Notes: generated by a model not told the origin, from the letters alone. A stretch of 64,000 nt of DNA from an uncultured Ruminiclostridium sp. (GCA_964456025.1 CAYVZH010000010.1:349-64348); one strand, 5' to 3'; positions 3,095-63,660 are shown, numbered from the stretch's first letter. Numbers and translations: made by a program.

Positions 3095-3450
3095 TTTAAG
3101 AGAAAAAATATATTACCGGGGGACGCTGTCCCCCGAACCCCCTGCAACCCTTTGAAAAGGCTTGACCTAAACTTTAATATTGCTTTATTGGGATATAATA
3201 AAAAGGAGAAAGTTTTTTACAATTAGACAAGTTTAGGAAAAATTCGACGAATAGTTAAAAATTCCTTGCTTTTAATAAATTTGAAAAAGCGATATTGCCT
3301 TTCGCTTCCTTTCGGTGTCGAAAGGAAGTGGGGTTCGGGGCGCGACAGGAGGTCGCGAGGTAAGCGCCCAAGGCGCCGCACGGACGCGGCGCAAAACAAA
3401 GCGCTTGCCAACGAAGCTCCCCAAAATAAATATATTTTCTCTCTTTTTTC
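3095..3450. repeat. Family B bipartite REP-like element (two inverted arms around a 99-bp AT-rich spacer)
   Basis: Left arm ends AATATTGCTTT (3186) and right arm starts AAAGCGATATTGCC (3286). GGGGACGCTGTCCCC hairpin. 3155-3186 is the exact reverse complement of 63501-63532. Confidence 0.75.
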
Positions 3451-3470
3451 TCTTATAATCTCTCAAAAAC

Positions 3471-4853
3471 TTACTTTTTCTTTCTCAGTTTATTTTTTTC
3501 CCAATGCTCGATCACGCGGGTATCGGCGCGCTCGACGGCGAGACCGTCAGCGGGGACGTTTCCGGTAATGGTCGAGCCGGCGCCCGTCGTCGCGTTCGCG
3601 CCGATCTCGACCGGCGCGACGAGGTTCGTATTACAGCCGATAAAGGCATGATCGCCGATCACGGTACGGTATTTATTGATCCCGTCGTAATTTGCCGTAA
3701 CGCAGCCGCAGCCGAAGTTCACCCCGCGCCCGACGTCGCTGTCCCCGATATAGGTCAGGTGTCCCGCCGAGGTATTTTCGCCGATCTCGGAGTTCTTTAC
3801 CTCGACAAAATCGCCGATCTTGACCCCCTCGTGCAGGATCGTACCGGGACGAAGGTGGGCGAACGGGCCGACCTTTGCACGGTCACGGATCTCGGCAGAA
3901 TACGCCTGTACCGCGTTTAAAACAACGCCGTTCCCAATGCGGCAGTTCTCGATCACACAGGACGGGCCGATCACACAGCCCTCACCGATCTCGGTCGTTC
4001 CCCGAAGGATCGTATTCGGGAGGATCCTTGTATCCCGCCCGATCTTTACGTCCTTCCCGATGATGACGCCGTCCACGCTCAGGAATTCCACCCCGTTCGC
4101 GAGGTGTTCCTCAAAAACGCGGAGCCGCGCGACCTCGTTCAGCATGAGCAGCCCCTTCCGATCGTTCGCCCCGAGGACGAGATCGGGATTTTCCGCGGTA
4201 AAGCATTCCGCCCGTCCGCCCTTTTCGCGGATCAGCGCGACCGTATCGGTCAGGTAATATTCGCCCGTGATCGGGTTCGGCGAAAGCAGCGAAAGCGCGT
4301 CCGAAAGCGCCTTTCCGTTAAACCAGTAGACCCCCGCATTCACCTCGGCAATGGCTCTCTGCTCATCGGTGCAGTCCTTCTGCTCCACGATCGAGAGGAA
4401 TTCGCCGCTTTCGCCGCGGACGATCCGCCCGTAGCCTGTCGGGTCGCTCAGCTCCGACGAAACGACGGTCACGGCGTTCCCGTTCTCCTCATGAAGCCGA
4501 AGCGCGTCCGTGATCGTCCGCACATCGACGAACGGCATATCGCCGTTAAACACAAGCACGTTTTCGCTCTGTTCGATTAGCGGGAGCGCCTGCCGCACGG
4601 CGTGACCCGTGCCCTTCCGCTCGCTTTGCAGATACGTCTGTAAAAATCCGCGGCGGGAAAGGTAATCGGTGACCTCCTCCGCGCCGCTCCCGATCACGAT
4701 CCCGATCTCCTTCGGAGAAAATCCCGCGCCCGTTACGCTGTCGAGGATCCAGCCGAGCATGGGCTGCTCCAGCACCTCGCAAAGCACCTTCGGGTGAGCG
4801 GATTTCATGCGTTTTCCGTCTCCTGCCGCTAAAATGACCGCACACTGTTTCAT
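3471..4853 (-). CDS. glmU: Bifunctional UDP-GlcNAc pyrophosphorylase / GlcN-1-P acetyltransferase
   Basis: ILAAGDGKRMKS..PKVL motif, EYYLTD, C-terminal hexapeptide repeats, 460 aa. Confidence 0.97.
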   Translation of the reverse strand: MKQCAVILAAGDGKRMKSAHPKVLCEVLEQPMLGWILDSVTGAGFSPKEIGIVIGSGAEEVTDYLSRRGFLQTYLQSERKGTGHAVRQALPLIEQSENVLVFNGDMPFVDVRTITDALRLHEENGNAVTVVSSELSDPTGYGRIVRGESGEFLSIVEQKDCTDEQRAIAEVNAGVYWFNGKALSDALSLLSPNPITGEYYLTDTVALIREKGGRAECFTAENPDLVLGANDRKGLLMLNEVARLRVFEEHLANGVEFLSVDGVIIGKDVKIGRDTRILPNTILRGTTEIGEGCVIGPSCVIENCRIGNGVVLNAVQAYSAEIRDRAKVGPFAHLRPGTILHEGVKIGDFVEVKNSEIGENTSAGHLTYIGDSDVGRGVNFGCGCVTANYDGINKYRTVIGDHAFIGCNTNLVAPVEIGANATTGAGSTITGNVPADGLAVERADTRVIEHWEKNKLRKKK

Positions 4854-4989
4854 CTGATAACCGTTCCTTTCCTCTTGGGATCACGCTGTTTCCCTTTATC
4901 ATTACTATTCCCGCCGAAGGCGGAATATACGGACGTTCTTCGCCCCGTTATACGAAAAGCAACACGCGCCATGCGTATTGCTTTTGTTT

Positions 4990-5700
4990 TTATTCCCCAA
5001 GATACGCCTTTTTAATGCTCTCGTCGTTGATCAGGTCGGACGCCGCGCCCGAAAGCTTGATCGTTCCCGTTTCGAGGACATACGCGCGGTCGGCGATCGA
5101 AAGCGCCTTTTTCGCGTTCTGTTCTACCAGAAGAACCGTTGTTCCGCCCGAACGGATCTTCTGGATAATATCGAAAATCTCGTTTACATAAAGCGGCGAA
5201 AGCCCCATGGATGGCTCGTCCATCAGAATGATCGACGGCTTACTCATCAGCGCGCGCCCCATCGCGAGCATTTGCTGCTCACCGCCAGAAAGCGTTCCCG
5301 CGATCTGCGTGCGCCGTTCCTCAAGGCGGGGAAAACGCTCGTACACGTTCTTCAGCGACTCGGCGACCTCCGCCTTATCCTTCCGCGTATATGCCCCCAT
5401 CATGAGGTTTTCGTACACGGTAAGCTGCTGAAACACGCGCCGCCCCTCGGGAACGTGCGCCATACCCATGGAAACAATCTTATGCGCGGGAGTTTTGGTG
5501 AGCTCCTTCCCGTTAAAGAGAATGCTCCCGTGCTTCGCGGGGATCAGTCCCGTCACCGTATGGAGAATGGTCGTTTTTCCCGCGCCGTTCGCGCCGATCA
5601 GGGCAATGACCTCCCCCTGTCCAACCTCAAAGGAAACGCCGCGGATCGCCTTAATGACCCCGTAGTTTACCTCGAGGTCGTGTATTTCAAGCATTGCCAT
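4990..5700 (-). CDS. livF: Branched-chain amino acid ABC transporter ATP-binding protein
   Basis: GANGAGKTT, VPEGRRVF, LSGGEQQMLAMGRALM. Confidence 0.95.
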   Translation of the reverse strand: MAMLEIHDLEVNYGVIKAIRGVSFEVGQGEVIALIGANGAGKTTILHTVTGLIPAKHGSILFNGKELTKTPAHKIVSMGMAHVPEGRRVFQQLTVYENLMMGAYTRKDKAEVAESLKNVYERFPRLEERRTQIAGTLSGGEQQMLAMGRALMSKPSIILMDEPSMGLSPLYVNEIFDIIQKIRSGGTTVLLVEQNAKKALSIADRAYVLETGTIKLSGAASDLINDESIKKAYLGE

Positions 5701-5722
5701 CGCTGTTTTCAGCCCTTTCTAC

Positions 5723-19431: not shown

Positions 19432-20024
19432 ACGTATTTTTAAGCTTCGTATCCGCCGCGCTCCTCGCGGTCTTTGTCCAGAACTCGGTTCTGGAGCGCG
19501 CTCTCGGCGTCAACGTCCTTTTATACGCCTCGCGGAAAAAGGAACACCTCCCCGGCTTCTTCTTCGCGATCACCTATGTCACGACGATCTCCTCCGCGAT
19601 CGTCTGCGGGCTTGACAGGCTTCTGAGCGGGTGGGAATATTACGCCGCCGTTATGCCGATTCTATATATAACGGTCGTAAGCATGGTCTATATCCTGACG
19701 CTCGTGGTGATCTGGTGGTTTTTCCCCCGTCTCTTCCGCTCGCTCAAAAAATACGTTCATCTTTCGGTTTTCAACTGCTCGGTCATCGGCGCGCTCTTTC
19801 TGGGCGGACAGCTCGGCGGCGATCTCCCCTCCTATCTCGGCTACGGCTTCGGGACGGGGGTCGGCTTTCTCGTCGCGGCGTATCTTCTCTATATCGCGCG
19901 CGACCGCCTTTACTCGCCGCTTGTGCCCGCGGCGTTCCGCGGATTTCCGATCATGACGGTCTATGTCGGGATCCTTTCCCTCGCACTGTACGCGTTTACG
20001 GGGTATTCGACGGCGGCGAGGTGA
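19428..20024 (+). CDS. RnfA/NqrE-like membrane protein (degenerate)
   Basis: FVQNSVLERALG, FNCSVIG, GTGVGF, AAFRGFPI..VGILSLA; overlaps the upstream stop (ATGA). Confidence 0.8.
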   Translation: MNVFLSFVSAALLAVFVQNSVLERALGVNVLLYASRKKEHLPGFFFAITYVTTISSAIVCGLDRLLSGWEYYAAVMPILYITVVSMVYILTLVVIWWFFPRLFRSLKKYVHLSVFNCSVIGALFLGGQLGGDLPSYLGYGFGTGVGFLVAAYLLYIARDRLYSPLVPAAFRGFPIMTVYVGILSLALYAFTGYSTAAR

Positions 20025-20028
20025 CCAA

Positions 20029-20128
20029 TACTATTTCACTTCCAATGTGTAGACAAAAATTCTGCACAAAATCCATTTATCCAAGATTTTGTTTGAATTT
20101 TTGTACACATTTAGGTCGTGAAATAGTC
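20029..20128 (-). mobile_element. Family A palindromic MITE-like element (reverse orientation)
   Basis: TACTATTTCAC..GTGAAATAGT termini; the interior is the reverse complement of 1890-1990; begins 5 bp after the rnfA-like stop. Confidence 0.7.
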
Positions 20129-20261
20129 AACTTCCTTTTGCGAAACGAAAACTTTTTTGCAGGGTATTTTCGTTCCCTTTCTCTATGCTTCTTCGTTTTA
20201 AATAAGGTTTGTGCATTTTTTGTTCCTTTGGCTGACCAAAGGAACCGAAAGTTCACCTCGG

Positions 20262-20335
20262 CAAAAGCTTTGCTTGCGCCGCGTCCGTGCGGCGCCTTGG
20301 GCTTTTGCCTGCAAGCCTCCTGCTTGCCCTCTGCG
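20262..20335 (-). repeat. Family B sub-module (reverse)
   Basis: Reverse complement CAGGAGG..CCCAAGGCGCCGCACGGACGCGGCGCAA matches 3345-3400 and 63560-63615. Confidence 0.65.
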
Positions 20336-20732
20336 CTGTTCTCAACCCGTTTGTACAAAGAAGAAAGGTAAGAGAAAAGAACAAGGCTCGTTTCTTTTTA
20401 AATCCTATCTTAATTTCTCCAAGCTTCCCCCATTGTACAATCAAGTTTGAACTGTGCAGTCCTCAATTGTACTGCACAAAGACACAGAACACCCCCCTTG
20501 CAGTCAATCAAGAGCGACGGAGGTATTCGGTTCCGGCAGAGATCGGTAAAAAATAACAGGAAATTGCCGCTGTACGGATTTTCTTCCCCGGGTTTATTAT
20601 AACTCCTCTCGGCGCTTACTCTGACCGCTTTTTTCGTCCCGCAAGTTTAAAAGATGAAAAAAGAGTTGAGGAGAAGCGACGAGAGGCGACTTTCCGCCGC
20701 TTTGGTCGGTCAAAGCGGCAAAAATAAACAAG

Positions 20733-20815
20733 CTTTCGCTTCCTTTCGCCGCCGAAAGGAGGCAGGGGTGTGGGGACGGCGTCCCCACAATAAAATAATT
20801 TTTCTCTTATTATCT
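20733..20815 (+). repeat. Family B arm (solo)
   Basis: TTTCGCTTCCTTTCG..CGAAAGGAGGCAGGGGTGTGGGGACGGCGTCCCCAC plus T-rich tail. Confidence 0.65.
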
Positions 20816-20847
20816 CTCTTATTTCCCACAAAAAGAAGGTGAATCCC

Positions 20848-22017
20848 ATGAAAAACCGCAGGCGCTACGGACGGAAGATCAAGCGCAGCAAGACCAATCT
20901 CTACAAGCGAAAGAAAACGCCGGCGCAGAAGGCGTTCGGTACCGTGCTGCTCATTATCGGGGTCTGCGCGGCGGTTTTTCTCGGCTACTGTCTCGGGAAG
21001 CCGCTTCTCGAATTCCTTGAGAAAGCCGCTGAAAGGGAACAGCCGGAATGGACGCCGCCCGTGACGTCCACGACCCCCGCGGAGACCGAGCCGGACGGAA
21101 CCGACGCGCCGGACGCAGCCGAAACGGAGGAAACGAAGCCTGCGGCGGAAGAAAAAACCAAAGCGATCACCGCCCCGAGCACCGCGCTTTTAAACTCCTC
21201 GTCTCTCTCGGCGTTCGCGGTGCGGGCGAAAAACGACGGCTACAACACCGTGCTTTTCGAGCTGAAGGACGAAGGCGGCTGCCTGCATTACGCTTCGCCG
21301 ACCGCCGCCGCGATGAGCGAGGAGCTGATCCTCTCGCCGCTTACCGCCGCGGAAATTTCCGAAACCGTCCTGAACGCGGGACTGACGCCGATCGCCGCCG
21401 TTTCCGTACTCTCGGACGACGCGGGCTGCCGCGCGAACCCCGATCTGAGCTATAAGATCGTGGGCGAGAACGTTTCCTGGCTCGATTACAGCGGCGATAT
21501 GCCCATTCGCCACGTCAACCCCGAAAGCAAGGCGGCCGCGGAGTATCTGAACGCGATCGTCGGCGAGCTGAACGACGCGGGGATCACGGTTCTCCTGAAA
21601 GACCTCGCTTTCCCCGATTTTCAGCCGTATGACCGCAGATATATCGCGGAAAAATATTTTGAGGAGAGCCGAAGCGCCCTTCTCGCCGCGCTCGTCCCCG
21701 AGAATGTTCCCGTCGAAATGCTTGCGGAGGACGTTTTAGCGGAAAATTACGGACGGACGGCGGAGCTTCTGCGCGAGCGAAGCTTTACCAGCCGTGAAAA
21801 CGCAAGTATCGCGGTACGGATCCGCCGCGAAAGCTTCCCGACCTCCGAAGGCTATCCCGCCGACGCGGCGGGGCTGATCGAGGATCTTCTCGCGCGGATC
21901 CGCTTAAAAACCGGCGCGGTCACGGTCATTCCCGTGATCGAAAGCGGCGGCTTCTCGGCGGCGGAGCTTTCCTCGATCCAGAAGCTTCTGACGGATCGGA
22001 GCTATATTATCGCATAA
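20848..22017 (+). CDS. Membrane-anchored putative glycoside-hydrolase-like (DUF4015-like TIM barrel) protein
   Basis: Basic N-tail, one TM helix, Pro/Thr linker, NTVLFELKDEGG resembling xxDxKDxxG of DUF4015-type proteins. Confidence 0.55.
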   Translation: MKNRRRYGRKIKRSKTNLYKRKKTPAQKAFGTVLLIIGVCAAVFLGYCLGKPLLEFLEKAAEREQPEWTPPVTSTTPAETEPDGTDAPDAAETEETKPAAEEKTKAITAPSTALLNSSSLSAFAVRAKNDGYNTVLFELKDEGGCLHYASPTAAAMSEELILSPLTAAEISETVLNAGLTPIAAVSVLSDDAGCRANPDLSYKIVGENVSWLDYSGDMPIRHVNPESKAAAEYLNAIVGELNDAGITVLLKDLAFPDFQPYDRRYIAEKYFEESRSALLAALVPENVPVEMLAEDVLAENYGRTAELLRERSFTSRENASIAVRIRRESFPTSEGYPADAAGLIEDLLARIRLKTGAVTVIPVIESGGFSAAELSSIQKLLTDRSYIIA

Positions 22018-44260: not shown

Positions 44261-44297
44261 AGCGCACCTCTTGATCGTTTATTTTACGGCGTCGGAA

Positions 44298-44453: not shown

Positions 44454-44477
44454 TATGAAGCTTCTCCTTTTTACTCT

Positions 44478-44753
44478 TTAAAACAAATCCGAATGTGTTC
44501 CCGTATCAATCAACGTCAAAGTTAATATGTCGTTTTCTATAAGATATACTAAAAGCCAATCCGGACGAATATGACATTCTCTAAAACCGTCCCATTTTCC
44601 TTTTAACGCGTGATCCCGGTATTTCGGTTCAAGCGGAATCCCATTCAATAGCTTTTCGATCACGGGATCGATTGAGGAAACATCAATGCCCCGCTTTTTT
44701 GCAAGCACGATACTTTTCGTATATTTTTTGGAAACGACCAACTTATATTTCAT
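44478..44753 (-). CDS. Type II TA toxin, YafQ/RelE family mRNA interferase
   Basis: KYRDHALKGKWDGFRECHIRPDWLLVY..DTGTHSDLF. Confidence 0.93.
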   Translation of the reverse strand: MKYKLVVSKKYTKSIVLAKKRGIDVSSIDPVIEKLLNGIPLEPKYRDHALKGKWDGFRECHIRPDWLLVYLIENDILTLTLIDTGTHSDLF

Positions 44754-45016
44754 ATTCCCAAATCCTTGCGGGCTTCTTCATAGCTGTCATACTTTTTTGT
44801 GTTCGGATCGCGGCTTAGTTGTTTCGCCTCTTTCATTGCTTCGATCATCTCTTCATTATATAAACAGTTTCTGATCGGAAACGGAATGCCGTCGTACAAA
44901 AGAACTTGTTTTAAGAATATATTCACCGCAGTAGATATATCCATTCCCAAAGCCTCTAAAAGCTCGGTCGCTTCTTCCTTCGTGGTTTTGTCTACGTTGA
45001 TTTGAATTGTTTCCAT
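44750..45016 (-). CDS. Type II TA antitoxin, RelB/DinJ family
   Basis: IQINVDKTTKEEA..LGMDISTAVNIFLKQ..GIPFPI; overlaps the toxin start by 4 nt. Confidence 0.92.
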   Translation of the reverse strand: METIQINVDKTTKEEATELLEALGMDISTAVNIFLKQVLLYDGIPFPIRNCLYNEEMIEAMKEAKQLSRDPNTKKYDSYEEARKDLGI

Positions 45017-45095
45017 GTCTATATAAACACCCCCTTATCTCCCGAACCCTTCGGAATAAGGAAAACCCGTTTCCTCATTCCGAAACGCTCCTTCA

Positions 45096-45157
45096 AGCAT
45101 TTCATAAATAACCGCCTATTTCCCCCGCAGTCGCCCGCGGGGGAAATTCGGTTATTT
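45096..45157 (-). terminator. Long hairpin terminator after the major pilin
   Basis: AAATAACCG..TTTCCCCCGC/GCGGGGGAAA..CGGTTATTT nested stems. Confidence 0.65.
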
Positions 45158-45188
45158 GGGTTTTAAGCGTTTTTCTAAGCCTTACGGA

Positions 45189-45866
45189 TTAGATGATGGT
45201 GAGCTTCGGAGAAGTACCAACGATGTCGCCCGCAGCGGTAACACCCGCCGTATTGCCGTCCCAGCCAGCAACGTGAACCTTGTTGTTCAGAACCGCAGGA
45301 GTGGTGGGAGTAGCAGCAGTCATGTCGAAGTGGTTGGTGATTACTAAGGGAGTTGCCGTGTCAGCAGTGTACGCACAAGCGATAACGTGACCGCCGGAAA
45401 CCGCCGCAGCAACCTGACCCGCCTGGATATCCGGGAATAAGCCCGCCAGCTGGATCGCCATCAAATCGGTAACATTAGTGGCCGCGCTCTTCAGCGTGGT
45501 GGTCGTACCGGTACCGGAAGCCGCCCAAGAAAGAGTACCTACGTTGAACGCGGTCGTATCGTTAGTAACGGCAGCGGTCCAAGTGGTAGTACCACCGGTG
45601 GTAGAAATCGTGAACGTGAAATCAGAGTACGCAACACCCTTCTTCATGCCATAACCGTTGGTATCGCAATCGGTAAGGAACGCGTCGATCTCCTTCGCGA
45701 ACGAAGCAGCGGTGGAGTCCGCGCTGGTAACACGGGAGTTCGTTACGTAACCTAACATCGTAGGTACGAGGATTGCGGCAAGTACACCGATGATCGCAAT
45801 AACTACGATTAACTCAACGAGTGTAAAGCCTTTTTTTGCCTTGAGCTTCTGGAAAAACTTAATCAT
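45189..45866 (-). CDS. Type IV pilin (probable major pilin)
   Basis: KKG/FTLVELIVVIAIIGVLAAILVP; strong AAGGAGG RBS; Thr/Ala-rich. Confidence 0.92.
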   Translation of the reverse strand: MIKFFQKLKAKKGFTLVELIVVIAIIGVLAAILVPTMLGYVTNSRVTSADSTAASFAKEIDAFLTDCDTNGYGMKKGVAYSDFTFTISTTGGTTTWTAAVTNDTTAFNVGTLSWAASGTGTTTTLKSAATNVTDLMAIQLAGLFPDIQAGQVAAAVSGGHVIACAYTADTATPLVITNHFDMTAATPTTPAVLNNKVHVAGWDGNTAGVTAAGDIVGTSPKLTII

Positions 45867-46006
45867 TGGTTTTTTCCTCCTTGTAAAAATTTTTTATGTA
45901 TAACCCTCTCGAGGTTATATCCATGTTCATTTGCAAGGAAATCGTTTTCATCGACCCGTTACCGAAATGTAACTTTGTGAAGATTGGTTTCCTTTGCTGT
46001 AATTAC

Positions 46007-46035
46007 AGTATACACCGAGACGGACGGTTTTGCAA
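46007..46035 (-). promoter_or_regulatory. Sigma-A promoter of the pilin gene
   Basis: Minus strand TTGCAA-17-TATACT. Confidence 0.7.
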
Positions 46036-46390
46036 GCCCTTTTTTAAAAAAAATGACCCGATGGGTAAAACTTTATTGAAGTTTTACAAGTTGTCGGAAT
46101 ACTTTTGGCGATTTTTAACACTTGAAGGTGACACTTCGCGGGGAGGACGCAAAAGGCGGGAGGGAATTTTTGGTAAAAAAGGTGAGATTGTAACTATCGG
46201 GAGTATACCATATATAATAAGCACGCTGCGGTAATATCATCAAAATCATTATAATGGATTTTCAGAAATTTTTCGTTGACTTTTCTTTTATTTTAGGGTA
46301 TAATAACGAAAACGAAGTCCCGCGGCAAAAGAAAGGATCGCCCCCGATTTCGGCACAAAACTTCCTCCATAAGAAAGGAATGACCAAAAA

Positions 46391-47380
46391 ATGAAGAAAA
46401 AAATACTTTCTGTCTTATTGATATGCAGTCTGTTTTTGTCCGCCTGCGACGCGGAGCCGTCGGAAACCTCCGCGGACGGAACGGGTGCGCCCGATTCCGC
46501 CGTTTCCGACCAGGCGTCGGTCGAGATCGGGGGCATGTCTTACCCGATCGACAGCACGGAACTGCGGCTGACCTCCGGCGCGCTTCAAGCGGAGGAGCTT
46601 TCAAAGCTCTCCGAATTTCCGAACCTTGCCATTCTCGACCTGAGCGATAACGGCTTTACCGATCTTTCCGCACTCAGCGGACTTCAAAGCCTTTACATTC
46701 TTTATATAAACGGGAATCCGATTTCCGACTTTTCGTTTCTGGAGGAGCTTCCGTACCTGGAAGAGCTGCACGCGGACAACTGCGGACTGAGCGATCTTTC
46801 CGCGCTCCCGATACTTTTGAATCTGGAGGAGTTAAGCGTACGCGGGAACGAAATCGCCGATCTTTCGCCGCTGACCGAATTTCTGAGCCTGATCCGCCTT
46901 GTCGTCAATAATAACCCGATCTCCGATTTCTCACCCTTGTCGGAAATGACCGACCTCGAGAGCCTGGAGGCGGATAACTGCGGGATCGACGATCTTTCCT
47001 TTGCGTCGGGGCTTGTGAACCTCTACACCCTGAGCGCCTGCGAAAACCAAATCAGCGACCTTTCGCCGATCGCGGGACTTACGGCAATGGAAAACCTGTA
47101 CCTCGACGGAAACGAGATCAGCGATCTTTCCCCGATCGCGGGAATGGAACTTCTCGAATGGCTCTATCTCGCGGAAAACAACGTTTCGGATCTCTCTCCG
47201 ATTAGGGGGCTTACCGCACTCGATCTGATCGACCTCGAGGCGAACCGGGTGTCCGACATTTCGATTTTTTACGAAATGGAGTGGATGAGCACGATCTACC
47301 TTTTTGAAAATCCCGTTTCCGAAGAGGATCTTGATGCGCTCGACAAGACGCTGAAGGAAACGACTATCGGATACGATTAA
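46391..47380 (+). CDS. Leucine-rich repeat lipoprotein (internalin-type LRR)
   Basis: Lipobox LSAC; about ten 22-aa repeats LxxLxLxxNxIxDLSxL. Confidence 0.92.
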   Translation: MKKKILSVLLICSLFLSACDAEPSETSADGTGAPDSAVSDQASVEIGGMSYPIDSTELRLTSGALQAEELSKLSEFPNLAILDLSDNGFTDLSALSGLQSLYILYINGNPISDFSFLEELPYLEELHADNCGLSDLSALPILLNLEELSVRGNEIADLSPLTEFLSLIRLVVNNNPISDFSPLSEMTDLESLEADNCGIDDLSFASGLVNLYTLSACENQISDLSPIAGLTAMENLYLDGNEISDLSPIAGMELLEWLYLAENNVSDLSPIRGLTALDLIDLEANRVSDISIFYEMEWMSTIYLFENPVSEEDLDALDKTLKETTIGYD

Positions 47381-47738
47381 AAAATAATGCCGAACCCGAA
47401 AAGACCGGGTTCGGCAAAGCGGCGCAAGGCACCGCGAAAAGGGCAAAGGGGAGCCCCCGGCGCGGCGATTCAAGAACGGTTCGTCCGACCCCCTGCCCGT
47501 GAGCGCTTCGACGTTTGCGGCTTTCCGACCGTTACCGCGCTTTCCCCCGCCCTTTATCAGTGTATGCCGACCGAAAAAATAAGTGCGGCGGCGTGCCGCC
47601 GTTCGCAATTCCGAAGAAGTCCTCCGAATGGGGGAAGTAACTGCGCGTGCGGCGGGATTTCCTGTTTCGCACACTTGTCGGAGCGTGCCGCCGTTCGCCT
47701 ATTTAGAACAATTTGAATGCTGAAAGCGAGGTTTTTTG

Positions 47739-48161
47739 ATGAAAATTTGTAAATCCTGCGGTGCGTCCAATCGGGACGACAGCCGATTCTGCTGCAACTG
47801 CGGCTTTGCCGAGCTTGAACAGGCTCCCGATCCCGTTCCCGCTCCCACACCCGCTCCGCCGCCCGTGGTCGTACATACCCCGCCGATTTTCCCGCCCCCG
47901 AAGCCCGAATTTACGCGCTATGACCTCTCGACGATTTTCGGCTTTGTCGCGGCGATCGTCGGGCTGTTCCAGATTTCGCTGATCCTAGAGCCGCTCGCGC
48001 TCCTTACCGCGATCTTCGGCTTTGCGCGCGGAAAGCGCTACCGCGGACTTGCGGTAGCCGGGATCGTGATCGCCGGGATCGGGCTTCTGCTCCGCCTGTT
48101 CTGGACGCTGTACCACAACGGCGTAGTTCCGCAGTGGGTCATTACCGGGACGTTTAATTGA
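47739..48161 (+). CDS. Zinc-ribbon membrane protein
   Basis: CKSCG..FCCNCG, Pro-rich linker, 2-3 TM helices. Confidence 0.8.
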   Translation: MKICKSCGASNRDDSRFCCNCGFAELEQAPDPVPAPTPAPPPVVVHTPPIFPPPKPEFTRYDLSTIFGFVAAIVGLFQISLILEPLALLTAIFGFARGKRYRGLAVAGIVIAGIGLLLRLFWTLYHNGVVPQWVITGTFN

Positions 48162-48270
48162 GGCTTGCCGACGTCGTTCAAAAATTAAGCGCTTTGATCT
48201 GTTTCTTTTTGAACATCGCGTTCCTGCTGCCGTCCGTGGACGATACAGTAAAAACAAGAGTCTTAAATGA

Positions 48271-48325
48271 AAAATCTGTAATATTCGACAAGTTCGTTGA
48301 AAAATCGTCGAATATTACAGATTTT
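48271..48325. terminator. Perfect 19-bp inverted repeat between convergent genes
   Basis: AAAATCTGTAATATTCGAC / GTCGAATATTACAGATTTT with a 17-nt loop. Confidence 0.55.
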
Positions 48326-48346
48326 CGTTTTTTCAAAACATGACAG

Positions 48347-48440
48347 AAAGCAATATTGCTTTTCGCTTCCTTTTGGCTACAAAAGGAAGCAGGGGGTATG
48401 GGGGACAGGGTCCCCCAAAAACATATACTTCTCTCTTATA
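48347..48440 (+). repeat. Family B arm
   Basis: AAAGCAATATTGCTTTTCGCTTCCTTTTG..CAAAAGGAAGCAGGGGGTATGGGGGACAGGGTCCCCCA. Confidence 0.7.
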
Positions 48441-48445
48441 ATCTC

Positions 48446-51400
48446 TCACTCAACCGCACGAAACTCCGTTTTTTCGCCCGTGGCGAGATCGACGGTCATG
48501 ATCATGTGATCGGTCACGGCGTAAAGGATCCCGTCCCGGATCGCGGCAACCCGATCCTTCGACTGAATGTCATAAAAAGACAGCTCCGCCGCTTTTTCGA
48601 GAAATGAGCCGTTATCGGCAAAGCAGACAAAGCGCTCAATCTCGGAAATCCCGTCAAAGGCGACATACGAGACCGCCGCGTATTTTCCGTCCTCGCTTAC
48701 GGCGATCCGCTCGCTGTTTTCTTCGGCGTCGCCCGAGAGATAGCGCGCGTATTCGGGCGCGGTTTTTTCATCAACCCCGATCCGCGCCGAACGCAGAACC
48801 GAAAGCCCGTTCTCCTTGTCATAGCCGTAAACCGAGAGCAGGAGCGCGGTTCGTTTCCCGTCCGCGTCCGACTCGGCGGAAAGCCCGATCAGGTTTTCGC
48901 CGAAGCCCGAAAGCTTTTCATAATAAACCGCGTTCGGGTTCGCTTCCGCCGCCATAGGCTCCTCCCCCGTAAAATCAACACAGTAGAGCTTTGTCTCACT
49001 CTCCGTTTCGGTCACAATATACGCGATTCCGTCGAGATAGCTCACCCCGCTCAGCCGTTCGCCCGCCGCGAAGCCTTCAAGCCGCACGTAGCCCTCCTCG
49101 GTCTTTTTTTGTGCAATAAGCGTGCCCTCCGCGCTGTTGTACGAAACAATACAGTTCTCCTCCGCGCTCAGGCAGTCCGCGCCGTAGCATTCTCCCCGAA
49201 CCGTTTCCTGCGAGAGAAGCTCGGTACCCGTCCCGATCCGCCGGAGCCGGATCAAATGCGTCGTGTTCCAGTCGGGGAGAAGGAGCGTGATCCGATCCCC
49301 GTCAAACACCGCGTACGTATCATAGCCGCCGAGAACGGCACTTACGCGGGGTTCCCCGCCGCTCACCGTTCCGATCACGGAAAATCCGCCGCATACCGCG
49401 CCGTCGGCGAGCAGGATCTCCTCATACCCGAGCGCTTGCTCCGTTTCCCCGATCCCATAGCGCGGGAAAACCGTATGTCCGCCCGCGGGAGTGACCGACG
49501 TAACGAGGGTAAAAATCCCGTCGCCGATCCAAAGCGCGGAATACCGCCCGTCCTGCCGATATGTTTCGATCGGGGAAAGCGCCTTATCGTACACCTCGAC
49601 CCGTACCGAAGCGCCCTCCTCGTCATAAACGAGGTAGACCCGATCTTCCCGCGCGGTAAAGCCGATGAGACCGCCGTCCGCGCTCAGGGGAAGCTCCGCC
49701 GAAACGCGCGGAGCCTCGGGCGAGAGGGAAACGGCGCGAAGCGCACCCTGCCGCAAAAAATAAAGCGAATCGCCCGCCGCCCGAAAGTCGTCGGTCAGCG
49801 GCTCAGAATACGGCTGTGCGCCCGTCCGATAGGGCAGGAGGATGTTTTTCTGCACGCGGGATTTCATTTCCGACGCCGCGGCGAGCACGTCCGCGTCCGA
49901 CTCGATCGTAACCGTCGGAGATGACGGCACGGGCGCGTCAATTATCTCCTTCTCGGTCGGGAGCACCGTCCCCGTCATCAGGAAGCGGATCCCGAAGCTC
50001 CCCGCGATCAGAAGCACCGCGCATACCGCGCAAAACGCGAGTTTTCCATTATTGACGCCGCGATAATAGACGTCGTCGTCAATGAAAAACTCCTTACCCT
50101 TGTATTTTTCGCGGCGAGGCTTTTCGGCTTCCTCGTCGTCGCCGAGGTCGGGAACCGTCGGGCGGAACACCTCCGGAGCAGGCGCGTCCGGCTTTTTCCG
50201 CGGCGCGGGCTTTTCCTCCTCGCCCGAAAGCTGCCCAAGTACCGCCGTATTGACGGGCGGCGTAAAGGCTCCCGTATTTTCGGGACGGACGACTTTTTTC
50301 TTTTTTGCGGGCTTTTCCTCTTCCTCGCCCGAAAGCCGCCCGATCACCGCCGTATTGACGGGCGGCGTAAAGGCTCCCGTATTTTCGGGACGGGCGCCTT
50401 TTTTATTTTTCGCGGGCTTTTCCTCTTCCTCGCCCGAAAGCCGCCCGATCACCGCCGTATTGACGGGCGGGGTAAAAGGCCCCGTGTTTTCGGGACGGGT
50501 CTCTTTTTTATTTTGTGCAGGCGCGGACTTTTCCGCGTTTTTCTTTGCGGGGAGGGGCTTTTCCGCCGCGGAGGGCTTTTTCCGCTCCACGGTAAAAAGA
50601 CCCGCCTGTTCCGTCTGCCGGCGCTGTTCTTCCTTTTTCTCTTTCCATTCGAGAAGCTCGTTTCTCCGCTTTACGGCGGAAAGAAGCTTATAATAATCCT
50701 CCGAGGTGAGCGGCGAGCTTTCGAGAAGCTCGATCAGCCGTCCCTTCGTCAGATTCGGATTTTCCTGAATCTCGCGGTAAACGTCGTTGCTGATCCGGGT
50801 GTTTCCGATCAGCTGTAAAAATTCCTTCCCCTTGATCCGCTGCGCGCTTATCACGCCGATAAACGTCCTCGCGTCAAGCGGCTTCCCGCCGGAAGCGGAT
50901 TCCGTTTCCGCTGCGGGCTTCGTCTCGTCCGATTTCCCGTCGGGCGCTTCCTTTTCGAGAAGATGTCTGTCTTCGGGGAGCGGCTTTTCTTCGGGGGGCA
51001 GATCCCTTTCGGGCATGGGCGGCTCCGTACGATTCGGTCGGACCTCCGCAGGGACGGGAACGGCAAGCTTTTTCTGTTTTTCCTCCGGGAAACGGATCCC
51101 CTCGATCTCCCGAAGAACCGCCGCCTTCTCCTCGCCGAGCTTTTTCTCCGAATCAATCAGCTTCCGCTCGACCGTTTCGTCCTTCAAGCCCGTAATGACC
51201 GAAATTTCGTGAATATTATAATGGAAGGCATACGACATGGCGCAGACGATCCGATCGAGGCTCGGGAGCTCTGAAAACCGACCTTCTCCGCGCGGCTCGA
51301 CCCCCTCCGCGCGGTATTCCTTGATCCGCGCGACAAGGTGCTTGGTAAGCTCGCGGGAAAGCCACGCCTGTAAATGCGCGCCGTCCCGCATCTGCGCGAT

Positions 51401-51571
51401 CCGGGCATACCCGTCCCGAAAAGCGTTTTTTACCGCTTCCCGCGCGTCCTCGGAACGTCCGAGCGACAGAACGGCAGCCGCGTAAAGCCTGTCCGCCGAA
51501 TCGGCGCAAAGCAGATCATAAGCGGAGCGGTCGCCGTTTTTCGCACACTCCAGTTTTTCCGCAGCCGTCAT
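48446..51571 (-). CDS. Fusion: degenerate ECF sigma-like N-terminus, repeat linker, TM helix, extracellular beta-propeller
   Basis: Sigma2-like DRLYAAA..EDAREAV..AWL and sigma4-like LPSLDRIV..HEISVITG..TVERKL; TM LAFCAVCAVLLIAGSFGI; GERLSGVSYLDGIAYIVT resembles Beta_propel family repeats. Confidence 0.7.
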   Translation of the reverse strand: MTAAEKLECAKNGDRSAYDLLCADSADRLYAAAVLSLGRSEDAREAVKNAFRDGYARIAQMRDGAHLQAWLSRELTKHLVARIKEYRAEGVEPRGEGRFSELPSLDRIVCAMSYAFHYNIHEISVITGLKDETVERKLIDSEKKLGEEKAAVLREIEGIRFPEEKQKKLAVPVPAEVRPNRTEPPMPERDLPPEEKPLPEDRHLLEKEAPDGKSDETKPAAETESASGGKPLDARTFIGVISAQRIKGKEFLQLIGNTRISNDVYREIQENPNLTKGRLIELLESSPLTSEDYYKLLSAVKRRNELLEWKEKKEEQRRQTEQAGLFTVERKKPSAAEKPLPAKKNAEKSAPAQNKKETRPENTGPFTPPVNTAVIGRLSGEEEEKPAKNKKGARPENTGAFTPPVNTAVIGRLSGEEEEKPAKKKKVVRPENTGAFTPPVNTAVLGQLSGEEEKPAPRKKPDAPAPEVFRPTVPDLGDDEEAEKPRREKYKGKEFFIDDDVYYRGVNNGKLAFCAVCAVLLIAGSFGIRFLMTGTVLPTEKEIIDAPVPSSPTVTIESDADVLAAASEMKSRVQKNILLPYRTGAQPYSEPLTDDFRAAGDSLYFLRQGALRAVSLSPEAPRVSAELPLSADGGLIGFTAREDRVYLVYDEEGASVRVEVYDKALSPIETYRQDGRYSALWIGDGIFTLVTSVTPAGGHTVFPRYGIGETEQALGYEEILLADGAVCGGFSVIGTVSGGEPRVSAVLGGYDTYAVFDGDRITLLLPDWNTTHLIRLRRIGTGTELLSQETVRGECYGADCLSAEENCIVSYNSAEGTLIAQKKTEEGYVRLEGFAAGERLSGVSYLDGIAYIVTETESETKLYCVDFTGEEPMAAEANPNAVYYEKLSGFGENLIGLSAESDADGKRTALLLSVYGYDKENGLSVLRSARIGVDEKTAPEYARYLSGDAEENSERIAVSEDGKYAAVSYVAFDGISEIERFVCFADNGSFLEKAAELSFYDIQSKDRVAAIRDGILYAVTDHMIMTVDLATGEKTEFRAVE
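50212..50498 (-). repeat. Three 105-bp coding tandem repeats
   Basis: CGGGACGG anchors at 50281, 50386 and 50491; encodes RPENTG(P/A)FTPPVNTAV(I/L)G(R/Q)LSGEEE. Confidence 0.9.
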
Positions 51572-51752
51572 GCCGTCACTTCCTTTCTTGAATATTACTA
51601 ACATATTATTATAGCATAAATTCGCGAAAAAGGGAAGGTTTTTTTGAATTTTTGTTTCTTTTCGAAAAGGAAAACAGATTTTGGGGAAGGTTATCTTTTG
51701 AGAATAGATTTGTTCCGTTCTCCCAACCGCAAAAGAACCGTCGGAAAAACGC

Positions 51753-55540: not shown

Positions 55541-56548
55541 TCATTCGCCGATCGTGATCGTATCGGGGAAAATGCTCTTGCTTTCTTCCTTATTTAAGAA
55601 AGTCGTGCTTACATAGCCCTGAATGATCGCGCCGTCATTTACGGTAATGGTCGAGGCGCTGATGTCTCCGAATACGACCGCGTCGCTTTTCAGCTCGGCC
55701 TTCCCCGTGATCTCGAGATTCCCCTTGATCTTCCCGTTCACGTTCGCGTATGTGGAGGAGATGTCCCCGATCAGGAGCGTATCCCGCTCCATAAATACAT
55801 TCCCCTTCATCTGAATGTTTCCCTGAACCTGAGAGGTGCGAAGCGCCGCGTTGTTGCAGGCGATGTTCCCCACGACCTTTCCGTTCAGGTTGATGTCCTT
55901 CGTCGTCTCGACGTTCCCCTTGATGTTCCCGTCGATGTTCATGTTCGCGAACGAACGGATATTTCCGTCAACGACCGTGTTCCGCGAAATGACCGTGATC
56001 TCGTTTTCGTCCACGGGCGGATAATTCGCCGTCGAGAAAGAGACGGGCGTCGGCTCGGGGGGAACCGGCTCGGTATTCATGTCCTGCCCGGATCCCGCGT
56101 TCTGCGAGAAAGAGGGATTCTGTCCGAAGCCCGCGTTCTGTCCCGCGGAAGCTTGTCCCATGGGATTCTGCGCGAAGGAAGCCTGTCCCGCGGAGGGATC
56201 CTGTCCGAAGGAGGGCTGCCCTGCGTTTTGAGAAAACGCGGCATTTTGAGAAAACGCGGCATTTTGAGAAAATGCAGTGCCCTGAGAATCGTTGGGGCGG
56301 ATCCCGTCCAGCTCGTCCTGACGACGGTTATACGCCTCCGCCGCTTCCGCCGCGCGGCGCTCGATCTCCTCGAATTCGTCCCGTTCGGGCTCGGCGGGCG
56401 GCTCCTTGATCGCGGCAAATTCGCCCGTATCCGCGGCGTCGACCGCGCTTCTCATTCCGTCTACGGTTGCCTTATCGTTCCGCCGTTCCTCTTTATCGCC
56501 TCCGGTAAGCTCTCTGATCGCTTGTGAAAAATTTTCCTTAATGCCCAT
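55541..56548 (-). CDS. Bactofilin (polymer-forming cytoskeletal) protein with long low-complexity N-terminus
   Basis: TVISRNTVVDGNI..IDGNIKGNV..GDISASTITVNDGAIIQG, apparently two bactofilin-type modules. Confidence 0.85.
   Translation of the reverse strand: MGIKENFSQAIRELTGGDKEERRNDKATVDGMRSAVDAADTGEFAAIKEPPAEPERDEFEEIERRAAEAAEAYNRRQDELDGIRPNDSQGTAFSQNAAFSQNAAFSQNAGQPSFGQDPSAGQASFAQNPMGQASAGQNAGFGQNPSFSQNAGSGQDMNTEPVPPEPTPVSFSTANYPPVDENEITVISRNTVVDGNIRSFANMNIDGNIKGNVETTKDINLNGKVVGNIACNNAALRTSQVQGNIQMKGNVFMERDTLLIGDISSTYANVNGKIKGNLEITGKAELKSDAVVFGDISASTITVNDGAIIQGYVSTTFLNKEESKSIFPDTITIGE
56226..56279. repeat. 18-bp tandem repeat (SQNAAF x3)
   Basis: TTTTGAGAAAACGCGGCA twice plus one diverged copy. 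Confidence 0.85.
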
Positions 56549-59705: not shown

Positions 59706-59757
59706 TAAAAATCTGCGCAAAACCGCATATATCAAAGCTTTCGCTTGATTTTTTGTA
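59706..59757 (-). mobile_element. Family A internal core remnant
   Basis: AAAAATCTGCGCAAAACCGCATATATCAAAGCTTTCGCTTGATTTTTTGTA is the reverse complement of the family A core; termini absent. Confidence 0.65.
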
Positions 59758-59800
59758 TGGTTTTCAATCGCATATTAGTATAAAAGAAAGGAAAAATATC

Positions 59801-60686: not shown

Positions 60687-61030
60687 AAAGCGTTGATGGG
60701 AAAGCAGTAGGAACCGGTTTTTCCTTTCATACTGATTTTTAATCAAAAAGTGTACAAAAAATCAAGCAAAAGCTTTGATTTATGCGGTTTTGCGAAGATT
60801 TTTTGTCTACACTTTTATTAAAAATCAGTATCAGAGACCCCGCGGCAGGTGTGAGCGGGGAGGAGCCCGGTTCTCGAATTACCTCCCGGAGCGGCAGCCG
60901 GAACGGGTTTCCTTCGGATTCCCCACTACGGCGCACGGGCCCGCCCGTTACAGCGGATCATAGTAATAAACCGAGGTGGTACCGCGATCTTTCGCCCTCT
61001 TTTGGCATTACGCCAAAGGAGGTTATTTTT
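60687..61030 (+). ncRNA. T-box riboswitch, probable Tyr specifier (UAC), interrupted in Stem I
   Basis: GCGTTGATGGGA..AGTAG 5' end, AGAGA, GGTGTGA loop, GAATTAC-CTCCCGGAG specifier region, CCGTTA, antiterminator AGGTGGTACCGCG..CGCCCT, terminator CTCTTTTGGC/GCCAAAGGAG plus T run. Confidence 0.88.
60730..60830 (+). mobile_element. Family A palindromic MITE-like element inside the T-box
   Basis: TACTGATTTTTAAT/ATTAAAAATCAGTA termini, 101 bp, TCA direct repeats at 60727-29 and 60831-33. Confidence 0.85.
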
Positions 61031-61937: not shown

Positions 61938-62162
61938 AGTTAAAGGTATCAACCTCCCGAACCCCTTGCGCTGTAACGATTTCATAGATTCGAGTAACGA
62001 TTGGTACACAAGTACTTTATTTCAGCACAGAACGGCAAATCGAAATCCGGTAAGGCAGGATAGCATGAGGAAGCTGAAATTGCTCAAAACACCAACTGAT
62101 AACGGAATAACAGATCCGGTTATACACAGAGATAACTTTCATGTTTGCGGAGGCGTTTTAAC

Positions 62163-62653
62163 TTGGAAAAGTATTTTGAGATATTAAAAGAAAACGGGGC
62201 TGATTTAGCCATAAAGATAACGGCTGATACCATAGTGACGGCAGCCTGGACAGTCTATCGCTGCAAATACGGGTGCGATACTTATGGGAAAAGCCACTGC
62301 TGTCCGCCGAATTGTCCCACATGGAAAGAAACGCAGGAAATGATAAACTGCTTTCACTACGGGATTCTGTTCAGATGCCATGAAATGAGCATAGTGACGC
62401 CTCTTGCCGTAAAAACGGCGCGAGAGTTGTTTTTGGACGATTATTACAAAGTTATTGCTTTTGGCAGCGGACCATGCAAGAAATGCCAGACATGCAATCC
62501 GGACCGCTGTAATTTTCCGGGCAAAACCGTTCCATCTATGGAAGCGTGTGGAATTGATGTTTTGCAACGGTAAGGAACAACAATCTTGAAATCCATACAT
62601 TACGAGAAAAAGATGATATTCAGAACCACTTTGGGCTTATATTGGTTGAATGA
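62163..62653 (+). pseudogene. DUF2284-like Cys-rich metal-binding protein with a single-base frameshift
   Basis: CKYGC..CCPP, GPCKKCQTC, PSMEACGIDV. Adding one T to the run at 62560-63 gives ..GIDVFATVRNNNLEIHTL..QNHFGLILVE*. Confidence 0.75.
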
Positions 62654-62839
62654 ATTTCAAATTCCGGTTTATCGGGAGGTTTATAAAAATCAACATTTTC
62701 ACTGATACATAGCTGTATCAACAGAGGTAACGGAATACCGGAAACACTTGAAAGGTCGTGATATCCGTGAGATTTCAGAAAAATCTCATCGATTACGGAA
62801 AAGCCGAATGAAAAAATCATTTCAGAAGGAGGCTTTTCT

Positions 62840-63319
62840 ATGATAAGGCAAGCGGAAAAAACCGATCTGCCGAATCTTACGGCGCTTTTCCGACAGCTTC
62901 ATGCGCATCACGTCCGGATCAAGCCCGAATCCTTCCGAATGCCGGAGGATCAATGGTTTTCCGAACGGATCGGCGGAATTCTGGACGACGGCGAAATGAC
63001 CGTTCTCGTAAGCGTTGGAGCGGGCGGCGATCTGAACGGCTATGCGGCAGTACGGATCATGACCGTCGATTCCGCCGAAAGGATCCCACGGAAAATGTGC
63101 TATATTGAATGCTTCGCGGTGGCGGAAAGCGCGCGCCGGAAAGGGATCGGAACGGCGCTTTTCGACGCGGTGAAGATGTTCGCGAGGAAAAACGGCTGCG
63201 GGAGCGTTCAGCTCGGTGTTACCGCGGTCAATACGGACGCTGTCCGATTTTATGAAAAAATGGGGCTTGTCCCGCGAACCGTACAAATGGAAATACGGTC
63301 TGTCGAAGAAGAGAAATAA
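62840..63319 (+). CDS. GNAT family N-acetyltransferase
   Basis: YIECFAVAESARRKGIGTALF..NTDAVRFYEKMG. Confidence 0.9.
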   Translation: MIRQAEKTDLPNLTALFRQLHAHHVRIKPESFRMPEDQWFSERIGGILDDGEMTVLVSVGAGGDLNGYAAVRIMTVDSAERIPRKMCYIECFAVAESARRKGIGTALFDAVKMFARKNGCGSVQLGVTAVNTDAVRFYEKMGLVPRTVQMEIRSVEEEK

Positions 63320-63324
63320 AAGAG

Positions 63325-63660
63325 AAGTATTATTTTGCAGGGGCGCTGCCCCCGCACCCCCGCTTCCTTTTGCAGCCAAAAGGAAGCGAAAAGCAATATG
63401 GCTTTATATAGGATTATCAAGGAAGAAAGTCTTGCCAAATTCCTCAATTTATCCGAGAAAAGCCGAATCTATCAAAATTACGGTTTATAAAAAACCGTTA
63501 AAAGCAATATTAAAGTTTAGGTCAAGCCTTTTTAAAGGCTTGCGGGGTCTGGGGATGCGACAGGAGGTCGCAAGTCAAGCGCCCCAAGTGCCGCATGGAC
63601 GCGGCACAAAACAAAGCGCTTGACACAGCGTCCCTGCATCAATATATTTTTCTCTTTTTA
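63325..63660. repeat. Family B bipartite element (95-bp spacer)
   Basis: Left arm ends AATATGGCTTT (63405) and right arm starts AAAGCAATATT (63501); shares modules with 3095-3450. Confidence 0.75.
63620..63648 (+). promoter_or_regulatory. Candidate sigma-A promoter for tyrS within the repeat
   Basis: TTGACA-17-TATATT, 50 bp upstream of the tyrS ATG. Confidence 0.55.

Follow-up and report, generated by a model that had tools for sequence, protein, structure and literature searches.

A REP/BIME/REPIN-like mosaic repeat of inverted hairpin arms in an uncultured Ruminiclostridium

Introduction

The REP (repetitive extragenic palindrome), BIME (bacterial interspersed mosaic element) and REPIN (REP doublet forming hairpin) systems, which are associated with RAYT (REP-associated tyrosine) transposases, are known chiefly from Proteobacteria. 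The BOX elements of Streptococcus pneumoniae are composed of the modules boxA, boxB (in n copies) and boxC. Correia elements are 100-155 bp in length and have simple 26-bp inverted repeats, a TA duplication and a site for integration host factor (IHF). The Correia or NEMIS elements of Neisseria have been reviewed (PMC3184786, PMC2229807). In E. coli, BIMEs combine REP units, also called palindromic units (PU), of types Y and Z in alternating orientation and with set linkers, and BIME-1, the RIP or RIB element, contains an L linker that binds IHF (PMC2817692, PMC6006769). A canonical REP carries a GT[AG]G tetranucleotide 0-2 nt 5' of the foot of its hairpin (PMC6006769). Here we describe a repeat, which we call family B, in a stretch of 64,000 nt from an uncultured Ruminiclostridium sp. 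(GCA_964456025.1 CAYVZH010000010.1:349-64348); this whole stretch is referred to as the window. We propose, with a probability of roughly 0.6, that family B is a repeat of the REP/BIME/REPIN kind, mosaic in structure, interspersed and non-autonomous, whose host is an uncultured Oscillospiraceae-like bacterium of the gut.

Results

Organization of family B

Family B is present at seven loci in the window: three complete elements (~3073-3470, ~40296-40610 and ~63320-63685, referred to as elements 1 to 3) and four partial ones. Every copy is intergenic, and the unit, 270-390 bp in size, has no open reading frame (ORF). Its usual layout is a CT-rich tail, hairpin H3, an arm of type a or b, an AT-rich core, the other arm type, H3 and a second tail. 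A first-pass annotation of this DNA had recognized the three complete elements and had given their spacers as 99, 96 and 95 bp; we obtained the same lengths when the spacers were measured from ..GCTTT to AAAGC.. (3187-3285, 40419-40514 and 63406-63500). It had also placed the elements correctly, but their true extents are longer, as CT-rich tails continue as far as the adjacent stop codon or ribosome-binding site.

Read from the centre outward, the a arm consists of H1 (AAAGCnATATTGCTTT, a 16-bp palindrome), H2 (GCTTCCTTTYGG..CRAAAGGAAGC) and H3 (GGGGTnnGGGGGACnnnGTCCCCC). The b arm has AAAGCAATATTAAAGTTTAGGTCAAGCCTTTTnAAAGGCTTGC in place of H1 and H2, followed by H3. The hairpin modules are 17-30 nt in size. 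Beyond H3 come a short A run, a TATAT motif and the CT-rich tail, in which TTCTCT boxes are spaced ~10 bp apart; the density of tail-like sequence in the window is confined to sites beside arms. When H3 is read outward, it is preceded by a T run and followed by an A run. This is the reverse of an intrinsic terminator, and thus H3 does not appear to be one.

The hairpins reported earlier as building blocks of the arms were all located in the window: TTCCTTT..AAAGGAA at 3306, 20223, 20740, 40378, 40535, 48367 and 63364, GGGG..CCCC at 864, 3118, 20772, 40350, 40567, 48400 and 63340, and GCCGCA.GGACGCGGC at 3375 and 63590, with a reverse copy at 20278. The third kind, described as GCCGCA-GGAC-GCGGC, is part of a larger unit of GC hairpins, module C (~75 nt), which lies inside the H3 loop of elements 1 and 3 and is reversed at 20262. 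The modules had been described as interchangeable and shuffled between left and right, but we found two defined arm types: of the 18 head-to-head arm pairs that the window and related contigs contain, 16 combine an a arm with a b arm, and the other two are the a/a pair of window element 2 and a b/b pair. In the usual a/b element, the arms have in common only the H1 half-site and H3. A block considered exact over 32 bp at 3155 and 63532 is indeed shared, but we measured it as an inverted match of 47 nt at 94% (3140-3186 versus 63501-63547). The two a arms of element 2 allow it to fold into a single long hairpin like that of a REPIN (-98 kcal/mol, z -8.2), and the initial view of a REP/REPIN/BIME-like interspersed unit, with inverted hairpin arms round a spacer, is supported.

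A degenerate arm pattern has six matches in the window and none in 100 shuffles. An nhmmer profile built from six arms recovers all reported copies, with E-values of 1e-16 to 1e-23. Together, these results indicate that the repetition of the arms is not due to chance. Solo arms that had been reported at 832, 20262, 20733 and 48347 are real; the six-arm profile also finds weak copies at 834-886 and 20222-20252, and no further matches in the window. A repeat finder likewise returns the arms as direct (D7, D8, D14 and D18) and inverted (I1, I5, I6, I9, I10, I13 and I15) families.

Hairpin pairing and conservation

Pairing was examined in distinct copies of the a arm (54) and the b arm (146). In 93-100% of these sequences, the stems predicted for H2, H3 and the b hairpin are paired. 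Compensatory changes are present in H2 (CG/GC and TA/CG), H3 (GC/AT) and the b hairpin (GC/CG and CG/TA), and one H3 position has four pair types. Additionally, in both arm types the strand that reads outward has far more G.T wobbles than A.C mismatches (~45 versus ~5). This excess hints that the outward-reading strand may fold as a single strand.

The nearest genome, CAZKKZ01, is ~88% identical and provides two syntenic loci, L065 (window 1-4702) and L052 (window 43043-51670). L065 contains the ortholog of element 1. The arms and tails of these two copies are ~85-90% identical, whereas the core is unalignable. Comparison of the sequences thus shows hairpins that appear to be held under constraint and a core that does not.

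Length, identity and exchange of the core

The cores of the 18 arm pairs measure 57, 67, 84, 91, 92, 92, 93, 93, 94, 94, 94, 96, 97, 98, 99, 125, 132 and 182 bp. Core length is strongly modal, near nine helical turns, but it is not fixed: 12 of the 18 cores are 91-99 bp, and the full range is 57-182 bp. Thus, the constrained spacer length suggested by the first-pass annotation stands as a mode only.

Apart from one GC-rich outlier of 57 bp, the cores are 62-86% AT. Many are significantly similar to one another, and some keep a long AT-rich hairpin, AAAATCTGTAATATTCGACA..GTCGAATATTACAGATTTT. This hairpin is intact at 48275-48330, where a 19-bp AT stem lies between an A run and a T run (z -9.4). 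The faint CAAGTT..GAAT traces that had been noticed in the spacers correspond to the loop and right stem of this ancestral core hairpin. Although the spacers were at first considered mostly different, the cores appear to derive from a single ancestral core by divergence. The original proposal had counted diverged copies of the fixed core of a known MITE (miniature inverted-repeat transposable element) as evidence against itself; the divergence from one core is apparent, but the core is that of no known MITE. As only 4 of 19 cores have a significant fold (z <= -4), and none of these belongs to the three complete elements of the window, we rejected a conserved hairpin or bidirectional terminator as a required feature of the core.

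The heptamer TGTCGAA, identical to the Spo0A-box consensus, is found in 25 of 113 copies of a-type arms, where its distance inside the arm is fixed (11-30 nt); examples are loci L012, L021, L039, L094 and L097, from other Oscillospiraceae MAGs (metagenome-assembled genomes). In the window cores at 48290 and 3228 it has the form TTCGACA and belongs to the left stem of the core hairpin.

The core of L065 resembles the core of window element 3 (z 11) and not that of its own ortholog, element 1. In turn, the element 1 core fits the element 3 core better when reversed (z 5.1 versus 2.5). These matches suggest that cores have been either exchanged between copies or inverted; the data do not separate the two. 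The earlier suggestion of a recombination-driven unit is therefore plausible.

If the cores are inverted, the elements could be invertons. The inverted arms would then be recombination sites, and the ~95-bp core would flip and alter the expression of neighbouring genes. Inverted repeats with a 16-bp palindrome (AAAGCAATATTGCTTT) do flank the cores, the orientation of the core relative to the a arm varies (L087 and L017 versus window 48347 and L001), and the element 1 core fits that of element 3 better in reverse. However, the cores are partly palindromic, which makes such orientation calls weak, and a 95-bp segment would be very short for site-specific inversion. The neighbouring genes include no recombinase, and many elements are between convergent genes or lack a promoter-like site. 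In the unitigs of eight metagenome runs, we saw the window orientation wherever the spacer was covered and no strand-switch joints at the core borders. We therefore regard an inverton as extremely unlikely.

Insertion, alleles and copy number

The same neighbourhood (ABC transporter, glmU, rce1, rce1 and parB) was fetched from relatives through GlmU homologues of 88 to 70% identity. The glmU-rce1 junction is 24 bp in L245 and 15 bp in L248, and in L249 the two genes overlap. It is 412 bp in the window and 327 bp in L065, in each case with the element. L244 has a 119-bp remnant (half of H2, H3 and the tail) and L246 has a different mosaic. The parB junction is 209 bp in the window versus 30-86 bp in relatives, where the rce1-rce1 junction is likewise compact. 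These comparisons show a unit that was inserted as a block into very short intergenic gaps, reaching from a stop codon to the next ribosome-binding site. The empty junctions of relatives have no tails, so the tails arrived with the element. We rejected the alternative that the tails were pre-existing target sites, as these junctions are tail-free and there are no tail-only sites in the window or the fetched loci.

One metagenome contig joins 40314 to 40587 via 13 nt, so that the inner part of element 2 is gone and both tails are kept. Because tail-only sites are otherwise absent, we read this allele as a deletion of the inner quasi-palindrome. An AATATAT-like motif flanks the inner part at either end, and the shortened allele retains one copy. 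Exact-protein look-ups for strain variants returned identical sequence only. Module C, present in the H3 loop of window elements, is missing from the H3 loop of the L065 ortholog; thus, hairpin loops are apparently a target for nested insertion. In metagenomes, unitigs are 18-120 times deeper over the arm modules than over the flanks, an excess that fits a high copy number and to which other species in the samples also contribute.

The presence of insertion and absence alleles also agrees with an ordinary MITE derived from an insertion sequence (IS). In that case, the tails and arms would be long terminal inverted repeats, moved by double-stranded cut-and-paste through the DDE transposase of a full-length IS at another place in the genome, and the hairpins would be incidental. 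Family B has the inverted arms and tails at both ends and the small size (270-390 bp, thus under ~500 bp, without coding capacity) that such an element would have, the two AATATAT-like motifs, of which the shortened allele keeps one, point the same way, and a second repeat in the same window, family A, behaves as a classic MITE. However, the ends of the usual family B element are not simple inverted copies, since they belong to two unlike arm types, and no unambiguous target-site duplication is seen at the compared junctions. Solo arms and modules in other lineages keep their pairing by compensatory change, which selection for transposase binding alone would not predict. Furthermore, the core diverges far faster than the ends at the orthologous locus. 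Searches of the window, the loci, plasmids and phages gave no parent IS and no related plasmid or phage, save one Microviridae record. For these reasons, we think that family B is unlikely to be a MITE of this kind.

Family A is ~110 nt long, with terminal inverted repeats ATACTGTTTCAC..GTGAAACAGTAT, and has copies at 1884-1995, 20023-20127, 43144-43470, 59707-59790 and 60720-60836. The copy at 1884-1995 fills the stop-to-start gap between two Rce1-like genes, which is 13-93 bp in relatives, and contigs of three metagenomes skip exactly 110 nt there.

Promoter-like sites and transcripts

The elements might instead be structured RNAs or cis-regulatory leaders, in which the core carries one or more promoters and each arm is transcribed outward as hairpin-rich RNA. 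Several features are consistent with this. Sigma-70-like matches lie inside elements or close by, in the b arm (TTGAAA-17-TAATAT), in the core of element 1 (TTGTAA-16-TATTAT) and at 63620 (TTGACA-17-TATATT). The core length would suit two back-to-back promoters, both arm types have their wobble excess on the strand that reads outward, and the modules occur in a metatranscriptome. However, the promoter-like matches have no conserved position, and none lies inside element 2, where the single match of the scanned stretch falls in the neighbouring gene. The cores, which would have to carry the promoters, are unconserved even between orthologs. H3 is followed by an A run and not by a U run. A search of the whole window against Rfam 15 gave no match at the gathering score (the best sub-threshold hit had 25 bits versus a gathering score of 100), and a search of two elements at E<=5 gave nothing meaningful. 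In the metatranscriptome, the RNA depth ratio resembles the DNA copy ratio. Finally, elements stand in either polarity relative to their neighbours and are also found between convergent genes. Given the inconsistent sites, the mixed polarity and the convergent gene pairs, we rejected a promoter or terminator function as the main explanation, and we consider structured RNAs or leaders distinctly improbable.

Distribution in relatives

The a module was found in at least 111 places in a scan of one genome per species, nearly all of those listed being in MAGs labelled Oscillospiraceae, Ruminococcaceae, Ruminiclostridium or Clostridia. Many of the a-module matches listed adjoin contig ends, as expected of a repeat that breaks assemblies. 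The b module was found at no fewer than 120 loci in a metagenome scan, and most of those listed are human-gut contigs of other, lower-GC lineages, in which it is part of different mosaics extending 60 to 450 nt. Both modules recur in many MAGs of Oscillospiraceae, Ruminococcaceae and other Clostridia and in gut metagenome contigs, with differing partner modules. This presence in many lineages, in different mosaics, suggests that the modules are old and widespread and have been combined lineage by lineage.

One lineage-specific partner module was seen in the CAMVEM MAG (L026, L043 and L053), in which an a-type arm is followed by a tandem unit of ~25 nt (CTCAAGCGCAGCGAGAATCTCACCGGT). The a-arm pattern had no match in viral contigs. 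The b module is present as a single copy in seven viral or proviral IMG/VR contigs (L237-L243), located either in the phage proper or in a host flank. The only plasmid match, NZ_CP050055.1 (L236), is a 6.3-kb circular sequence filed as a Pseudomonas aeruginosa plasmid that is actually a Microviridae-type genome; its proteins include a Phage_F capsid and a REP_ORF2-G2P replication protein, and its non-coding region contains two tandem a-type H2-H3 modules (4935-5067).

Positions of the elements and other features of the window

The genes that flank family B are ordinary: parB, two Rce1-like proteases, glmU, an Rnf subunit, a P-type ATPase, an acetyltransferase and others. These neighbours are housekeeping genes in any orientation, convergent pairs included.

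The outer tail of element 1 (3073-3117, minus strand) adjoins the ribosome-binding site of an Rce1-like gene (1991-3058, minus strand). It is CT-rich when read outward, has the TATAT motif beside H3 and is ~85-90% identical to the L065 ortholog. The b arm (3118-3186, minus strand) contains H3 GGGGGACGCTGTCCCCC, the b hairpin CAAGCCTTT..AAAGGCTTG and the inner half-site AAAGCAATATT (E 1.5e-21 with the alternative-arm hidden Markov model). Next is the core (3187-3285, unstranded), which has 99 bp, 77% AT and no significant fold. On the plus strand follow the a arm (3286-3341), with H1 (AAAGCGATATTGCC), H2 (GCTTCCTTTCGG..CGAAAGGAAG) and the 5' half of H3; module C (3342-3418, ~75 nt), with several GC hairpins within the H3 loop; and the CCCC or 3' half of H3 with the outer tail (3419-3470), whose TTCTCT boxes are ~10 bp apart and which reaches the stop codon of glmU (3471).

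Element 2 begins with an outer tail (40296-40349, minus strand) that adjoins the start of the gene at 39168-40283 (minus strand). Its left a arm (40350-40418, minus strand) reads H3-H2-H1 inward, with a profile E-value of 2e-18. The AT-rich core of 96 bp (40419-40514, unstranded) is followed by the right a arm (40515-40581, E 1.6e-21) and its tail, which together occupy 40515-40610 on the plus strand and end at the stop codon of the P-type ATPase gene (40611).

Element 3 starts immediately after the stop of the acetyltransferase gene (63319) with a short tail and an a arm (63320-63405, minus strand; E 6e-22). Its AT-rich core of 95 bp (63406-63500, unstranded) is of the same type and orientation as the core of L065 (z 11). 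The remainder (63501-63685, plus strand) comprises the b arm (63501-63555), module C in H3 (~63556-63632), the 3' half of H3 and the tail. Module C and the tail form the TTGACA-17-TATATT match at 63620, which points at the downstream gene (63698).

The four partial copies are more varied. At 832-910 (plus strand), a solo arm with a variant H2 (CCAAAGGAAA..TTTCCTTTGG), H3 and a tail lies in the 209-bp convergent gap between parB and an Rce1-like gene. At 20222-20322 (minus strand), a solo H2 hairpin (20222-20250) is followed by the reversed module C (20262-20322). A solo a arm without H1 (H2 and H3, with a tail; E 2.6e-18) is located at 20720-20830 on the plus strand, upstream of the gene at 20839-22017. 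The last, at 48275-48447 (plus strand), is a half element with the core hairpin (48275-48330), an a arm (48347-48416) and a tail that reaches the stop codon of the ORF at 48446-51604.

This ORF (minus strand, 1052 residues, no Pfam match) contains three tandem 105-bp repeats (50214-50528) that are 79-100% identical to the reference copy. A short tandem array with an 18-bp unit (GCRTTTTGAGAAAACGCG) is present at 56223-56288. The gene order parB, rce1, rce1, glmU, ABC transporter (window 3-4853; L246, L248 and L249) is kept down to 70% GlmU identity, and the presence of parB suggests that the start of the window is near the chromosome origin.

Discussion

In sum, we found that family B is built from two defined arm types, that the hairpins of these arms keep their pairing as sequences diverge, and that the unit occupies a glmU-rce1 junction that is very short or overlapping in three related species. 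Several results weigh against the REP/BIME/REPIN-like reading that we favour. The first-pass annotation had raised the prospect of a RAYT or IS200-type HUH gene flanked by the same arms. A crude screen of the window and of 1.6 Mb of fetched loci, which consisted of a HUH..Y regular expression and a tblastn probe, revealed no such gene and no Y1/RAYT-like ORF, a parent IS was likewise not found, and Pfam searches of nine window genes flanking elements gave no Y1 transposase and no recombinase. The GT[AG]G tag of canonical REPs is absent from the arms; the consensus flanks are TTTTCG before H2 and GGGGTnn before H3, and GTGG is found in some copies only, within GGGGTGTGGGG. No clean target-site duplication was seen when the window was compared with the empty L245 and L248 junctions, or in the shortened allele of element 2. 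Element flanks are AT-rich and partly palindromic, and as the flanking AATATATT is its own reverse complement, a target-site duplication is not distinguishable from a terminal repeat. The only metatranscriptome with the modules, in undirected contigs without transcript ends, shows DNA-like depth ratios. The wobble asymmetry may reflect a few founder events and not selection. Lastly, the arm sets were gathered with sequence patterns, so that the constancy of the stem cores in H2 and the b hairpin is in part a product of the search, whereas the covarying positions and the whole of H3 were free of any search-pattern constraint. A RAYT/IS200 candidate in L037 had no Pfam match and was dismissed.

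We have proposed a model for family B as a REP-like repeat that addresses how the unit spreads, what it may do in transcripts and how it decays. We believe that the hairpins are probably the functional part of the unit, and that a trans-acting enzyme probably recognizes them as single-stranded DNA and copies the unit. In transcripts, the stacked GC hairpins would probably be intercistronic exonuclease barriers and not terminators. By analogy with REP and BIME function, such barriers would shift the relative stability of the upstream versus the downstream message.

The second part of our model concerns the fate of the inserted copies. We propose that units decay to solo arms by deletion, and that they may gain nested modules in hairpin loops, module C being an example. 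The AT-rich core drifts or is exchanged between copies, while the arms stay foldable. It is possible that ectopic recombination between conserved arms moves cores from one locus to another.

A bolder hypothesis, on which we place only long odds, is that the modules form a Clostridia-wide 'alphabet' of single-strand DNA recognition sites for a non-RAYT enzyme, and that the paired arms are handles through which AT-rich cores are swapped as cassettes. The enzyme may be a rolling-circle (HUH) Rep like that of gut Microviridae, as in NZ_CP050055.1. Cassette swapping would explain how the core at an orthologous locus can match a paralogous copy while its length stays near nine helical turns.

Family B, read as a REP/BIME/REPIN-like repeat, would represent a similar logic with different parts in gut Firmicutes that are abundant and for the most part uncultured. 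Should the family hold up, it would be both a marker and a cause of the fragmented assemblies of these MAGs, because many matches are at contig ends. It would also be a source of strain-level presence/absence variation, and would offer a natural setting in which to study how the expression of operons changes when hairpins come to lie between genes that were once 15-24 bp apart. Discovery of a mobilizing enzyme would either carry the REP/RAYT picture into a new phylum or point to another mechanism.

Correia elements were compared with family B by architecture. Both are small inverted-repeat elements that insert into AT-rich intergenic DNA. Correia elements have a functional centre of fixed length, can create outward promoters and are co-transcribed with their neighbours, and family B may be similar in these respects, but the 100-155 bp size, the 26-bp repeats, the TA duplication and the IHF site are Correia features that were not seen in family B. 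BOX elements, likewise compared by architecture, are intergenic mosaics of named modules in Firmicutes, with partly complementary end modules, a variable middle and stable predicted folds, and without a known transposase. The sequences and sizes of their modules differ from those of family B, and the middle of a BOX element varies by boxB copy number, whereas family B has a single AT-rich core of modal length.

The REPINs of Pseudomonas and E. coli (PMC3116915, PMC3337134) also consist of two inverted hairpin units with a less conserved spacer, and family B shares with them the single long hairpin of element 2, conserved ends with a drifting middle, and solo units that arise by decay. However, the usual family B element has two unlike arms and is 270-390 bp in length, compared with ~100 bp for a REPIN. 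It lacks the tag tetranucleotide, and no cognate single-copy Y1 transposase was seen in the window and the 1.6 Mb of loci.

Our comparisons suggest that the closest analogue of family B is the BIME of E. coli, especially BIME-1/RIP. Family B resembles the E. coli REP and BIME sequences but appears to be separate from them, and our text searches, which covered REP and RAYT in Clostridia and the module sequences themselves, found no published description of it; together with the lack of an Rfam family, this agrees with the initial suggestion that the repeat may be undescribed. It is found in another phylum, and no likeness to E. coli REP sequences was noticed by eye, without alignment. A family B arm is made of two or three stacked hairpins (~70 nt) compared with one 35-nt unit, and its linker of ~94 bp is AT-rich and poorly conserved whereas the BIME-1 linker is a conserved 33-bp IHF site. 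The CT-rich phased tails are particular to family B, and neither the GT[AG]G tag nor a RAYT was found. Despite these differences, both are high-copy, extragenic repeats that lie between the genes of operons or at operon ends, both are mosaics of a few types of hairpin module, and in neither are the hairpins intrinsic terminators. Above all, both join two unlike palindromic units, in inverted orientation, through a linker of characteristic length: family B has an a/b pairing in 16 of 18 cases and a linker of 91-99 bp in 12 of 18.

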